Positions 8,217 to 59,211 of a stretch of DNA of 64,000 nucleotides are shown one piece after another. Location: NCBI RefSeq assembly GCF_006345805.1, contig NC_042997.1, positions 40,362,001-40,426,000 of the forward strand. The letters are read 5' to 3'. This DNA comes from Octopus sinensis. Its lineage: Eukaryota. Numbering within the stretch: position 1 is the stretch's first letter; every line of letters starts with the position of its first letter. A program made the translations under genes and the position numbers. The notes beneath the pieces were generated by a model, which ran no database searches, was not told the origin of the DNA, and saw only the letters and a program-made list of their open reading frames with translations.

Positions 8217-8555
8217 GGTTAAAGATCCCCTTCGGTCACGAATGACCATAGGATTGCACCTAGAAAGTTACATTCCGAGGCACAAGTCCAGGCAAGATTG
8301 TTTATGGAAGACCAACAGTTGTCCATGCATGCCAGCCTTCTCTCCCTATGCCACTGATGTTATCCAAGGGAAATGCAAAGGCCGATACAGCTTGGCACCA
8401 ATGACATTGCAACTCATTTCTACAGCTGAGTGAACTGGAGCAACGTGAAATAAAGTGTCTTGCTCAAGAACACAACACACATCCTGGTCCAAGAGTCAAA
8501 CTCACTACCTCATGATCGTGGGTCAGACTCTCTAACCACTGAGCCACGCAACTTC
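8217..8555 (-). mobile_element. Full-length tRNA-derived SINE (V/CORE-like central domain)
   Basis: Minus strand: A box tggctcagtgg, B-box-like gagtttgactc, gtgttcttgagcaagacactttatttcacgttgctccag. Tail shared with 54241-54436. Confidence 0.85.
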
Positions 8556-10158: not shown

Positions 10159-10657
10159 TATTTTTATTTTTTATTTTATTTTATCTAGTTTCAGCTCATG
10201 AGCTGTGGCCATGCTGGGGCACCGCCATTTGGTGTTGCTACATGATTTTACTTCACGAATGCTTTTCAGCAATTGTCATTTGGTGCATGAGAGAGTTCGA
10301 TGCACCTGCCCTCATCTGCACCTCCTGCCGTGAAGTTGGTTCATCTGGGACACCTGACAGGAAGAGATCCAGTTTTATTTTAAAGACATCCGCATCCACC
10401 CCATGCAGGTCTCTCAGGTTCTTCGGTGGGCCTCTGAAGCCCAGGCTATCACAGTATCTTGTCCTACATCTTGATGGCAAATTTGGAGTCCTTGGCACTA
10501 TGCAGTGGCGCCCAGTTCTAGCATTTGTGTAATTCTCGATGCCAAAGTTTGGGACAAGTCCTTCTAGGATCTTCCATATGTATATTATGGCATATCTTTC
10601 TCGCCTACGGTCTAAGGAATAGAGTCTTAATCTCTTGAGTCTTTCCCAGTAGCTTAT
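10159..10657 (-). mobile_element. 3' end of CR1/L2-group LINE (ORF2 C-terminus, 3' UTR, (TAAAA)n tail)
   Basis: ORF 10253-10840(-): SYWERLKRLRLYSLDRRRERYAIIYIWKILEGLVPN...FKIKLDLFLSGVPDEP. 3' hairpin cagctcatgagctg, then A-rich tail. Confidence 0.9.
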
Positions 10658-10689
10658 ATGTATGTGTGTATATATGCACATATATATGC

Positions 10690-10757
10690 ATAGGAGTGGC
10701 TGTGTGGTAAGTAGCTTGCTTACCAACCACATTGTTCCAGGTTCAGTCCCACGGAGA
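10690..10757 (+). mobile_element. SINE 5' head (CORE-like family), truncated
   Basis: ggagtggctgtgtggtaagtagcttgcttaccaaccac...ggttcagtcccac, matching the head at 28030-28092. Confidence 0.85.
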
Positions 10758-10888
10758 TGTACCTGCATAGCAAGTGACCTGATCTGAGATCGTGTGCTGA
10801 AATAAAAACAATTGCAGCGTGAAAGGTGCCTATAAGCCATTTAAAAATTGAAAAAAAACGTTTGATTCACTTCAACATTTAAATTTAG

Positions 10889-10949: not shown

Positions 10950-11470
10950 CCCATCCTTCCCTATTCTTCTCTCCCCTTCACCGTTCCCTTTCTCTCATTC
11001 CTCCTCCTCCACTCTCTCCACGCTGACACGTGACGAGAGGGAATCTATCTTTCTGACTACTACCTTCGCAAAGACTAAACGTGCTTATTCTGTCTCTTCA
11101 TAACCTCTTCTCCCTAAGCGTTCAGAATATTTTTTCCATCGTCTTGGCTTAACAACTCTCATCGTTTGTTTTTACTGTTTTGTTCTCATTGTTCTGTTCT
11201 TGTTATCCCTTTCACTCTTCGCAAAAATCCCAAATTTCATTTAATTTGCTTTGCGGAAAGGACTGTTTCAACGAAGTCGCGTCTTGTCCTTGCCTTCGAA
11301 ACGTGGAGTAGATGAAATAGGGACAACTGAAGAAGGGAATATTCTTTATGTTGTATGCCTCATTTTTCTGTTTTTTTCATTGTCCGAAAAAAAAAGTTCG
11401 TTTCTATGGTTTTGTTTTTATGTTTTCGTTTCTCATTGTGTTCAACGTTTTTTTGATGTCCTGTACTCAT
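10950..11470 (+). mobile_element. PLE-terminus-like repeat ending in gatgtcctgtactcatata at (TA)n
   Basis: Shares aaaaatcccaaattt with the 29580-30012 copy, and the ribozyme block and 3' terminus with both 14553-14800(-) and 29580-30012. Confidence 0.65.
11263..11338 (+). ncRNA. Non-circularly permuted hammerhead ribozyme candidate (copy A, intact core)
   Basis: cgcGTC 11278-83 | ttgtcc 11284-89 ... ttc GAAA 11298-301 cgtg ... ggacaa 11321-26 CTGAAGA 11327-33 A GGG. Outer helix ctgtttca/tgaaatag. Confidence 0.7.
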
Positions 11471-13812: not shown

Positions 13813-14414
13813 GTGATTAAGAAGTACCAAACTGAGAAGGCTCCGCATTCACTGTATATCCCGAATCAGACGCGCTCGGCTTCCATGTGTTTTATCCAAT
13901 GAGAGGCCAGTTCTCTGAGATAACAATTAGATGACACAGACGAGGCGAAAGTGACTACAACGTGAACAGGAGTTTCTAGCTATTAAACAATACGCGTGCT
14001 CTAAGTATGTGGTATTGATAATGCTTACATTATAGAGATACTAATATTGCATAATCTGAATTTATTCTACTTGTGCAGCACCACAGCAAATCTAAACAGT
14101 TTTTACAATATATGTGTATACGTCATGCTAAAGATTTCGATTTCGTCTCGGAAGTGACTCGAGTGCATGGAACTGGTAGGCTTCATTGGTATCTGTCACT
14201 CTGCTCATCGTTCTGCGGGTTTTCTTGTCGACTACATTTCTAAAGGGATTTTTCCAGGACGATAAACATACGTCAAATGTATAGTATTGGATATATATAC
14301 GGTCGTACATAATTCATATATATATATATATAATTATGCGCGGTCGAATTTGTACGTATATATTAATACTTGGAAATGGATGCGTCGCGTTCAATTAAAT
14401 GATAAATAAAAAAT

Positions 14415-14456
14415 TATATATATATATATACATATACACACACACACACATATATA

Positions 14457-14524
<68 letters not shown>

Positions 14525-14550
14525 CATATATATACACACACACATGCATA
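14415..14550. repeat. (TA)n/(CA)n microsatellite
   Basis: Direct reading. Confidence 0.95.
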
Positions 14551-14552
14551 TA

Positions 14553-14800
14553 TGGGTACAGGACGTCACCAACGGTGCAATAACGTGAAATACGTAAACA
14601 TGAGATAAAAATGGAAAGCAAGACAAGTTAACACAGAGCAAGAACCCTTCAACAGTTGTCGGCTGTCCTATCTACCCCTCATTTCGAGCATACTACGACA
14701 ATATGAGCCTTCAAAGACAGTTGCTTCCATAAATTCTAAAATAAAATTTAGGATTTATGGATCGTCAAAGTTGGGAACAAAAAATGACAGTGGAGACATA
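14553..14800 (-). mobile_element. PLE-terminus-like repeat (reverse-complement homolog of 29745-30012)
   Basis: gggtacaggacgtcaccaac...caaagttgggaacaaaaa aligns with the 29.8 kb copy. Confidence 0.75.
14644..14720 (-). ncRNA. Non-circularly permuted hammerhead candidate (copy C, A6U core)
   Basis: Minus strand: ctgtct..gaagg ctcATA ttgtcg tagtat GCTC GAAA tgag gggtagata ggacag c cgacaa CTGTTGA A GGGT. Confidence 0.65.
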
Positions 14801-14828: not shown

Positions 14829-14940
14829 TTGGTCGGCTCGAGGCTATAGTAGAAGACTCTTGCCCAAGATGCCACGCAGTGAGACTGAACCCGGAACCAT
14901 GTGGTTGGGAAGCAAACATCTTGCCACATAGCGACGCCTG
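14829..14940 (-). mobile_element. SINE 5' half (CORE-like family)
   Basis: gaggctatagtagaagactcttgcccaagatgccacgcagtgagactgaacccgg. Confidence 0.85.
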
Positions 14941-29579: not shown

Positions 29580-30012
29580 GTGGTCATCTTTCTTTTCTTT
29601 CAGGACTGTCTTAAGGACAGCACGTATCCTACCCCTCCCTTCTATCTTTTCTCTTGTCAAAGAAATATTTCTCCAGTGTTCGCTATTTTACCCTCGTTCT
29701 GTTCTAACGACCCTCCATGTTTGTTTCCGTTCGGTTTCCTTCTATGTCTCCTCTGTCCTGTTTTTGTTCCCAACTTTGACCCTCCAAAAATCCCAAATTT
29801 TATTTTGGTACTTATGGGAGCAACTGTCTTCGAAGACTCATATTGTGGTTCAGTGCTCGAAATGAGGAGTAGATAGACAGCCGACAACTAATGAAGGCTC
29901 GTTCTTTATGTTACTTGTCCTATTTTCCATTTGTTTCTCTGATCGTTTGCGTATTGAACTCATTTGCTTTCGTATTTCATGTTGTTTACTGTTGGTGACG
30001 TTCTGTACCCAT
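29580..30012 (+). mobile_element. PLE-terminus-like repeat between microsatellites
   Basis: Pyrimidine-rich body, ribozyme block and terminus ggtgacgttctgtacccatata shared with the 11 kb and 14.6 kb copies. Confidence 0.75.
29824..29899 (+). ncRNA. Non-circularly permuted hammerhead candidate (copy B, G5A, probably dead)
   Basis: ctgtct tcgaaga ctcATA ttgtgg ttcagt GCTC GAAA tgag gagtagat agacag ccgacaa CTAATGA A GG. Confidence 0.6.
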
Positions 30013-49840: not shown

Positions 49841-50164
49841 ATTACACATATTCAAGTATTCACAAGACATAGTAGGAGCCGCTAAGTGGGCGCTGAACCT
49901 GCGAGAGATGGCAGCAAAATTTCCCTCAATTATACTTCTTCATCTTAAAAAAAAAAAAACGGGGGACAAAATGAATAATGAAGTTCTAGATTTTCAATAA
50001 CTGCAAGAAAAAGAAAAAAATGAGATGATTTAAATCAGTGGTTCTCATCCGGGGTCCATATTTTCCATGGAGGTCCAAGTAAAATTTTGTTGTGAAAATT
50101 TATCTGCAATGAAATAGTTATACTTCTACAATACTCACAATAACTTGGAACTTTTTTCGTATAA

Positions 50165-50556
50165 TCTTTATATATAAAAGTCAAGTTGTGTGTCTGTCTC
50201 CTACGATTTAGATTCCTAACTACTCCCACATTTTGCGGTGCAGTTTAACCAAAACCGGGTATCTTATCGTCGTGATTCATATTGAGCCCTTCTGGGTATT
50301 AGCGCGCGTCTACGATGAGTCTACGATTAAAAAAAAAAATTACCATAAATTTTTCCCATTTTAATGCTTTTTTGGCATATATAAGGGAAGTAACTCTAAA
50401 AATTTATTATTAAATTTCAGAACGTAAAAAGTTACAGTAACACCCCCCCCCTTTGTGGTTAGCCATTTTCGGATGGCTATTATACTTTACATCTCTAAAA
50501 ATGCTTATATAGTTATTTCCCTTACAAACCCGAGCAACTCCGGGCGATACTGCTAG
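50165..50556 (+). mobile_element. Complete non-autonomous Helitron
   Basis: A|TCtttatatataaaag 5' end; subterminal hairpin cccgagcaactccggg; CTAG|T 3' end; no TSD. Confidence 0.9.
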
Positions 50557-54029: not shown

Positions 54030-54432
54030 GTAAGTCCAAGTCCCGCGTGAAGCTGGGGTGGTGATGATCCCTGCTGTACTCTTTCACCACAACTTTCTCT
54101 TACTCTTTCATCCTGTTTCTGTTGTACCTGTATTTCAAAGGGCCAGCCTTGTCACACTTTGTGTCATGCTTATTCTCCCCTGAGAACTACGTTATGGGTA
54201 CACGTGTCTGTAGAGTGCTCAGCCACTTGCACGTTAATAAATGAGCTGTGATGTCACTGGTGCCAAGCTGTATTAGCCTTTGCCTTTCCTTTGGATAATA
54301 TTGGTGGCGTGGAGAAGAGAGGCCAGTATGCATGGGCAACTGCTGATCTTCCATAAACAACCTTGCCCAGATTTGTGCCTCGGAGGGTTACTTTCTAGGT
54401 GCAATCACATGGTCATTCATGACCGAAGGGGG

Positions 54433-54436
<4 letters not shown>
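54030..54436 (+). mobile_element. Chimeric SINE: Nin/Deu-like domain joined to the tail of the 8.2 kb family
   Basis: agggccagccttgtcacac...gtgtctgtagagtgctcagccacttgcacgttaat, then atgagctgtgatgtcactggtgccaagctgta...ggtcattcatgaccgaagggg. Confidence 0.8.
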
Positions 54437-58301: not shown

Positions 58302-58699
58302 CTAGTAGTATCGCCCGGCGTTGCTCTGCTTTGTAAGGGAAATAACTATATAAGCATTTTTAGAGAGTTATAGCCAAAAAATAGCAAAAAAAAATGCATT
58401 AAAAATGGAAAAAAATGATGGTAAATTCTTTTTTTAAATCGTTGACTCATCGTAACATTTTTAGAGAGTTACTTCCCTTATATAATAGCGAAAAATGCAT
58501 TAAAATGGAAAATAATGATGGTAAATTACTTTTAAAATCGTAGACTCATCGTAGACGCGCGCTAATACCCAGAAGGGCTCGATATGAATCACGACTATAA
58601 GATACCCGGTTTTGGTTAAACTGCACCGCAAAATGTGGGAGTAGTTAGGAATCTAAATCATAGGAGACAGACACACAACTTGACTTTTATATATAAAGA
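58302..58699 (-). mobile_element. Complete non-autonomous Helitron (same family as 50165-50556)
   Basis: On the minus strand A|TC...CTAG|T; first about 170 nt nearly identical to the 50 kb copy; internal duplication of the ttttagagagtta...aaatgcattaaaa...gatggtaaatt block. Confidence 0.9.
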
Positions 58700-59211
58700 T
58701 AATAGATATGGCACAACATTGATGAAAGAAAACTATGATCCTACTATTGGATACGCAGCACCGATAGATACAGTCAATTGCAGCTGTCATACACATATAG
58801 TAGTATATTGTATGTATGTATGTATGTTTGAGTGTATATACACATACCTGTACATAAAAGAAAACATTTACAGTTCACTTACACATCTTACACATCTTTT
58901 AAATAAGTAGTTAAGTAGTTAAGCGTCTTACATATACGCAACGGGCCAAGAGTACCGTCTCTCACAGACACACACGCAACCAAATGCACTCGTAAGCAAA
59001 CAAACACGCCCATACAACATCCACGGCGTATGCACACACGAAACCCAGTTATGGTTCACTGTATTGATCTATGCACTCTAAAGTCGATGTCTAGCTGTCT
59101 TTTCGTACGCCTTCGTTTGCGCAAAACAACCGACTTGTACTCATCCAGCGTAAAAGGTTATTCAGGTATTTCTTGTATTTAGGATTTTACGTAGCACTGT
59201 AAAAATACTGA

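Follow-up and report, generated by a model that had tools for sequence, protein, structure and literature searches.

A segment on the minus strand of the octopus DNA analysed here (a stretch of 64 kb, hereafter the window; all coordinates below are positions within it) carries the letters of a hammerhead ribozyme in permuted order. The locus raises three linked questions: whether these letters belong to a genuine hammerhead, which strands build its stem II, and what kind of element carries it. An earlier note, made from the letters of this DNA, had placed the motif at 14644..14720, paired its stem II through the tail that follows the core, and compared it with a related copy elsewhere in the window (copy A; the locus itself is copy B).

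Organization of the module

All letters quoted in the earlier note are present, on the minus strand from 14720 to 14644, and a permuted hammerhead-type motif is borne out. The module actually begins about 46 nt further 5', at 14766 (Table 1). Its blocks follow the order S-G-C, and a descriptor of the form IIIb-UH-Ia, IIb-GAAA-IIIa, Ib-CUGNNGA identified two sites in the window, copies B and A. The order occurs beyond chance: with stem II left unconstrained, the descriptor gave 10 matches in 800 kb of unselected genome versus 0 in reversed sequence. Six of the 10 matches were true modules, and these were the source of families D, E1, E2 and F. Rfam gave no hammerhead match at the copy B locus or in nine loci, and none was present among the 150 matches listed of 183 for the window, which held microsatellite-driven miRNA matches. 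Nested folding of copy B also gave no signal (z = 0.08), as expected of a structure whose helices cross.

Table 1. Window positions of the predicted copy B module, its parts, its host repeat and related copies
Feature	Position	Strand	Remarks
Whole split-core hammerhead module, copy B	14643..14766	-	Order 5' to 3': P0a, hairpin H, IIa, outer-a, block S, block G, outer-b, Ib, CUGANGA, P0b
P0a, 5' strand of closing helix P0	14761..14766	-	Here GACGAU, two pairs broken
Hairpin H	14727..14760	-	CCAUAAAU/AUUUAUGG plus CUAAA/UUUAG; no linker between its 3' end and position 10.1
IIa, true 5' strand of stem II	14722..14726	-	GAGCA in the family, here AAGCA (G10.1A)
Outer helix, 5' strand	14715..14720	-	CUGUCU; joins distal ends of stems II and I
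Block S	14696..14707	-	IIIb CUCA (14707-14704), U16-A17 (14703-14702), Ia UUGUCG (14701-14696)
Block G	14678..14690	-	IIb UGCUC, GAAA (14685-14682), IIIa UGAG (14681-14678)
Outer helix, 3' strand	14663..14669	-	AGACAG in the family; one extra G in copy B
Ib and core	14649..14661	-	Ib CGACAA (14661-14656), core CUGUUGA (14655-14649); A6U at 14652
P0b, tail after A9 pairing with P0a	14643..14648	-	Taken as stem II 3' strand in the earlier note
5'-truncated copy of non-coding Penelope-like repeat, family B	14367..14800	-	Start (14800) in a (GT)n tract
Copy A (family A), same module	11215..11337	+	G10.1A at 11257; S-G-C descriptor match 11263-11337
Second family B copy	29788..29898	+	Core CUAAUGA (G5A); IIa intact

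Stem II pairs upstream of the core

We compared seven families (A, B, D, E1, E2 and F, together with Naiad family N) using 20-29 copies of each and helix limits set by hand. In all seven, the five-base strand that precedes GAAA is matched perfectly by a Watson-Crick partner upstream of the outer helix (35 of 35 pairs), and the helix is written in four different strand sequences (GAAGG/CCUUC, GAGCA/UGCUC, GGCUG/CAGCC and GACAC/GUGUC). This upstream stem II always opens with the G10.1-C11.1 pair, 0 nt after hairpin H, and a blind scan located the exact complement of IIb at a single fixed offset per family, from -35 to -41 relative to G12. In an alignment of 15 copies from families A, B, D and F, its covariation reached 0.613, with three two-sided columns. 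None of 500 shuffles scored as high, and slid controls reached at most 0.133. The pairing read in the earlier note, gcuc/gggu in copy B and uuc/ggg in copy A, shows no two-sided change and a covariation of 0.117, which 275 of 500 shuffles equalled or exceeded. Structural alignment of the subfamilies, proposed in that note as a check, thus places the covariation of stem II on its upstream strand and not in the tail. Since one MAFFT alignment (A2) set block S one column off between families A and B, its use was restricted to stem II. Between these two families, two-sided changes are indeed present in stems I and III and in the outer helix, as had been read. Given the upstream partner of stem II, three helices (I, II and III) covary around the core.

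The core itself is standard. CUGANGA, GAAA, U16-H17 and G10.1-C11.1 are present at the family level, and 17 of 29 B copies, like 25/25 E1 and F copies, have all 13 scored core positions intact. A fixed element written as CUG.NGA-A had been reported for the two copies in the window; CUGANGA survives the wider comparison, and the trailing A does not: it opens a closing helix, and other families have U or C at its place. This closing helix, P0, is formed by the tail after A9 and the strand directly before H (GACCCU/AGGGUC in family B), and its duplex energy is lower than that of the earlier note's pairing of the same tail as a downstream stem II in seven of seven families. The outer helix is likewise found in all seven, with a link of 2-5 nt between the strands of stems I and II.

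With stem II drawn from upstream and P0 closed around H, the backbone is open between A9 and G10.1. The core, P0, H and stem II are predicted to meet at a four-way junction, and in this reading the outer helix would tie the far ends of stems I and II, as does the interaction helix in type SGC. In an intact B copy, the best nested fold includes both P0 and H and arranges the interior differently; nearest-neighbour folding is unable to show a pseudoknotted core.

State of copy B and selection on the fold

Cleavage of copy B is predicted between 14702 and 14701. This copy has four kinds of defect: A6U, G10.1A (G in 27 of 29 other B copies), the loss of two P0 pairs, and an extra G. The A6U change noticed earlier is present and private to copy B, A6 being kept in 28 of 29 other B copies. 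The 5' strand of P0 is GACCCU in 19 of 29 other B copies, and one DNA run (X15) has G at the 10.1 place of copy B in most of its depth. The substructure comprising P0, H and stem II is worth -9.0 kcal/mol in copy B versus -23.9 kcal/mol in an intact B copy. Changes of A6 reduce the activity of known hammerheads (PMC3088659). Because of A6U, G10.1A and the broken closing helix, copy B is probably inactive. A U6A change alone would be no test of its fold, because G10.1 and two closing-helix pairs are also lost.

Selection on the structure, as originally claimed, is visible in the two-sided changes between subfamilies and disappears at the level of single copies, where pair-breaking changes dominate. 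Within family A we counted 48 pair-breaking single changes versus 2 compensatory ones, and within family B 59 versus 3. The core of family A is not better kept than unpaired flanks (0.066 versus 0.039), and that of family B is kept slightly better (0.034 versus 0.046). Covariation between families combined with breaks within them points to selection on master lineages and decay of inserted copies. To judge from these comparisons, single copies decay neutrally and the covariation lies between families.

The host repeat and its families

Copy B belongs to an abundant repeat. Searches of the 2.72-Gb genome with 20-mers, allowing at most one mismatch, returned at least 3,630 copies of family B and at least 2,041 of family A (both counts are lower bounds on copy number), and reversed controls returned 0. 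Families D, E1, E2 and F have 1,200-2,600 first-look candidates each. Among best-matching copies, mean identity to the column majority is 95% in A and B, 97-98% in D and E2 and >99% in E1 and F. Non-coding tandem units with one hammerhead each are found in families A (746 nt), E1 (756-812 nt) and F (823-846 nt); no clean tandem unit was seen for family B. Repeat copies are 5'-truncated and share an end motif followed by (TA)n, often with a 30-nt tail that equals the start of the next unit, and tandem and inverted copies occur. Truncation, (TA)n ends, tails and such arrangements are features of Penelope-like elements (PMC8557442). The family B copy in the window shows the same plan, with the shared end motif at 14567-14543, then a (TA)n tract, then a 30-nt tail (14396-14367, minus strand) identical to the next unit's start. 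Long A and B copies contain no ORF, and no GIY-YIG/RT ORF was found upstream of them; in the E1 unit the longest ATG frame is 77 aa. By these signs, families A, B, D, E1, E2 and F appear non-coding.

Other stem letters mark further subfamilies, A-related or A/B-like, at L016:928-1013, L058:2739-2825, L174 and L070. The unit start of families A and B has a GTAAGT 5' splice-site consensus (window 14367-14396, minus strand; L011, L015, L035 and L041), reminiscent of the intron in Penelope pseudo-LTRs. In runs X1, X2, X3 and X8, which derive from other organisms, E1 carries a 23-nt insertion inside hairpin H relative to L172:1524-1529, which suggests that the apex of the hairpin tolerates length change.

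The (GT)n tract in which copy B starts lies beside a fragment of a very abundant SINE-like repeat, found at 14829-14940 (minus strand) and 10655-10752 and presumably the octopus tRNA-derived SINE. A 195-aa open frame at 10253-10840 (minus strand) we take, by motif, to resemble the C-terminal end of a LINE-type reverse transcriptase ORF. The window also holds two dispersed repeat pairs in opposite orientation, 8224-8419 with 54239-54434 (82% alike) and 50160-50383 with 58481-58704 (92% alike).

The split layout in Naiad retroelements

Naiads are described as lacking canonical hammerheads, some consensuses, including Naiad_Ovul, being marked HHR_core or HHR_half_core (Craig et al. 2021, PMC8557442). 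By eye, the supplement to that paper holds the split layout in the 3' UTRs of Naiad_Obim and Naiad_Ovul, and also in Naiad_Bfor from a ctenophore and Naiad-3_Chem from a cnidarian. A 20-mer from the Naiad_Obim/Naiad_Ovul 3' UTRs occurs 647 times in the genome studied here, where the motif lies 420-1300 nt downstream, on the same strand, at 17 of 30 Naiad ORF-end loci. The full-length motif letters of families A and B had 0 matches in the portion of the supplement searched. Other arrangements were also seen there by eye. Several consensuses in its nematode part are clean type C-S-G, and the consensus before Naiad_Sdum is another split form, consisting of block S, a stem II hairpin with GAAA and block C, in which the tail after A9 pairs directly upstream of stem I.

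To look beyond this genome we used one of its Naiad RT frames as query and, with 15 of 17 of its homologues, collected 52 metagenome loci. Over 55,970 nt downstream of RT, a descriptor with no fixed block order gave 21 sense matches in 20 loci versus 3 antisense, 2 complement and 0 reversed. The other 32 of the 52 loci had no descriptor match, 11 of them with <260 nt of 3' sequence. Among the sense matches, S-G-C order with IIa placed 67-94 nt upstream of A9 accounted for fifteen, and C-S-G order with IIa at 0 or +1 for three. The Naiad 3' UTRs of L390, L391 and L393 contain non-circular hammerheads of clean C-S-G type; the natural C-S-G examples given by Eckert et al. number only two (PMC10085705). 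Viral contigs yielded no relative of the Naiad RT.

Upon re-parsing of 17 metagenome candidates, 16 proved to be S-G-C with upstream IIa. All 16 have G10.1-C11.1, and 15 allow at most one downstream stem II pair. P0 and H were found automatically in 15 of the 16, with all three linkers at zero in 9, and for 14 of 16 modules no more than 5 of 200 shuffles of the upstream 90 nt reached the junction score. The same automatic null was passed by 3 of 7 single representatives from this genome. The 16 modules have an outer helix of 5-14 bp and a link of 1-7 nt between stems I and II. Median identity among 23 parsed modules is 49%, with two close pairs, L362/L364 (90%) and L368/L369 (82%). The layout behind the 16 Naiad-type RT genes is that of the octopus families, written in unrelated stem letters. 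Eight fold-bearing loci encode GIY-YIG upstream of RT (N-terminal) in open frames of 861-1344 aa. L381 and L402 appear by eye to have an unsplit S-G-C motif whose stem II lies downstream, and may be intermediates between forms.

Proposed mechanism and alternatives

We consider it probable that copy B stems from a non-coding Penelope-like repeat and has decayed, likely to inactivity; that the 3' region of this repeat holds a predicted S-G-C hammerhead with its core opened at A9/G10.1 by a four-way junction; and that this hammerhead would self-cleave if intact. Judging from hammerhead structure (PMC11300833), stem II would stack on the A9-G12 pair and P0 on H; the unbroken C11.1-G12 strand would still let stem II stack on the sheared A9-G12 pair. 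The standard active site would be complete once P0b, the last strand, is transcribed. Head-to-tail transcripts of the 730-840 nt units, cut after NUH, would then yield unit-length RNAs. Four helices (P0, II, outer and III) may keep both cut ends together, favouring end-joining to a circle that could be copied by a Penelope-type reverse transcriptase into (TA)n tracts. Circularisation and copying by such an enzyme have been proposed for retrozymes (bioRxiv 10.64898/2026.07.22.740005). In Naiads, the split fold is probably the 3' UTR ribozyme of many elements scored as being without a canonical hammerhead.

Contigs from runs X2 and X3 (likely RNA runs; no run holding the repeat is recorded as RNA) span a whole E1 unit and the unit junction, which fits circles or tandem read-through alike. 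Runs X2, X3 and X8 do not cover unique flank and X15 does, and contigs cannot show cleavage. The 5' ends of truncated copies are scattered and do not pile up at the predicted cut, a single B fragment (L022) ending one base before it.

With regard to the enzyme, this genome yielded no young Naiad ORF; the next-best matches are at most 75-80% identical and mostly interrupted by stops, and by this evidence the Naiad RTs here are old and broken. Compared with Naiad or Neptune-like 3' ends, the non-coding units have no sequence in common beyond nested insertions. A young TA-ending Penelope-like family with many 784-aa frames is present at L085:1719-3545 (minus strand), about 40 kb beyond the window, and in L281-L310 and L356-L360. 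It encodes RT with a C-terminal GIY-YIG and a Cys-rich linker, features by which we take it to be Neptune-like, and it is a candidate driver of the young non-coding families. In both of the 3' UTRs examined from this family (L085 and L288) there is a type I hammerhead whose core is the U3/A8 variant of PMC4209133. We also considered E1 as the 3' UTR of the Neptune-like element that it adjoins in L085. This was rejected: E1 is a separate insertion in the (TA)n end of that element and is present at only 1 of 30 loci of the family.

A broader proposal, which we put forward tentatively and as possible rather than probable, is that the module represents a seventh hammerhead topology, its catalytic strand opened by a perfect four-way junction, and that this is the ancestral 3' ribozyme of Naiads from ctenophores to cephalopods. 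Such a ribozyme would cleave, its four-helix clamp would drive ligation to circular templates, and the non-coding parasites of this genome, in their tens of thousands, would have kept the fold in order to be copied by Penelope RT.

Three alternatives were weighed. The one that survives best, though unlikely, accepts the fold as described and holds that fast self-cleavage has been lost: the fold would offer the Penelope RT/endonuclease a structured handle, or act as a protein-dependent switch, and its core would be a scaffold for binding. Poor cleavage of Penelope minimal hammerheads in vitro (PMC4209133), the lack of a genomic footprint of the cut in the truncation points, the likely-RNA-run contigs that cross the predicted cut site, and alternative pairings over G8-A9 in families A and D (by IIb in 18 of 29 A copies) are all in its favour. 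It is opposed by the retention of CUGANGA, GAAA, U16, NUH and G10.1-C11.1 in 23 of 23 modules that differ freely in their stems (the search itself specified the core letters), since the kept set is the one that catalysis needs.

A plain type SGC hammerhead is a good deal less probable still. Stem II would then be formed by the G-rich tail after CUGANGA, with one extra base, and the upstream helices would be incidental. An extra base at A9/G10.1 has precedent (PMC3705267), and two of the metagenome Naiad loci, L381 and L402, look unsplit. One base after A9 the tail can make four pairs in A and in B, six in F and two in N, so that a 6-bp downstream stem in F and 4-bp stems in A and B are kept as alternatives; however, none can form in D, E1 or E2 and at most one in nearly all metagenome modules. 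The downstream helix also shows no two-sided change, and its duplex energy is weaker than those of the upstream stem II and P0 in every family. Comparison thus largely refutes this reading. Least probable of all, and hardly to be expected, is a two-state switch whose tail would pair now in P0, now in a downstream stem II, with cleavage confined to one of the two states. Families A, B and F can form either pairing, but D, E1, E2 and nearly all metagenome modules cannot form the downstream one, so the switch cannot be general.

Comparison with known systems

A split-core hammerhead architecture tied to Naiad retroelements is real and apparently undescribed: we found no description of S-G-C, C-S-G or split-core hammerheads in Naiads or animal genomes in the literature searched, outside which most subscription papers lie. 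Hammerheads of type SGC cleave in vitro (Eckert et al. 2023, PMC10085705). The examples reported there come from metatranscriptomes, with none given from genomes of known organisms, and the six permutations were derived on the assumption that CUGAnGA and its adjacent paired strands are uninterruptible (PMC10085705). If the split fold is true, the CUGAnGA block would be interruptible and the topology would lie beyond the six permutations; non-circular permutations would move from environmental virus-like RNAs into animal genomes in thousands of copies. Naiads would then have seemed devoid of the hammerhead of other Penelope-like elements owing to descriptors blind to S-G-C, C-S-G and split forms. 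The motif is one that standard hammerhead censuses and Rfam have missed. Near-identical young copies (E1 and F) and intact Naiad contigs make the fold testable by a simple transcription assay.

The octopus modules resemble type SGC (HRIMA-1, PMC10085705) in block order, the short link between stems I and II, the helix at the ends of these stems and the standard core letters. They differ in that block C is broken: no stem II strand follows CUGAnGA by 1-2 nt, and it lies instead upstream, behind an extra hairpin and a closing helix, P0. They are, moreover, high-copy repeats in an animal genome. Additional helices have been reported in other hammerheads (Weinberg et al. 2015, as cited in PMC11300833), and other variants are described in PMC13725137, PMC10162972, PMC4209133 and PMC12192606. 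The PK hammerhead (Zhan et al. 2024, PMC11300833) is, like the predicted octopus form, a natural one with extra helices around stem II, but its A9-G12 and G10.1-C11.1 close one short stem-loop. The CChMVd(+) viroid hammerhead, with its extra A10 (PMC3705267), tolerates an insertion at the same A9/G10.1 place; that insertion is a single base, whereas the octopus form would accommodate two helices, with chain ends inside.

As mobile elements, families A, B, D, E1, E2 and F share (TA)n insertion, 5' truncation, partial tandems and a 30-40 nt tail with Naiad (PMC8557442). Unlike Naiad, they appear non-coding, and what they have in common with the Naiad 3' UTR is the fold and not the sequence. Metazoan non-LTR retrozymes (PMC7229834; bioRxiv 10.64898/2026.07.22.740005) are also non-coding tandem repeats with one hammerhead per unit and a Penelope-like link. 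Retrozymes carry type I hammerheads, in contrast to the split S-G-C form that the octopus repeats are predicted to carry in units of 730-840 nt.
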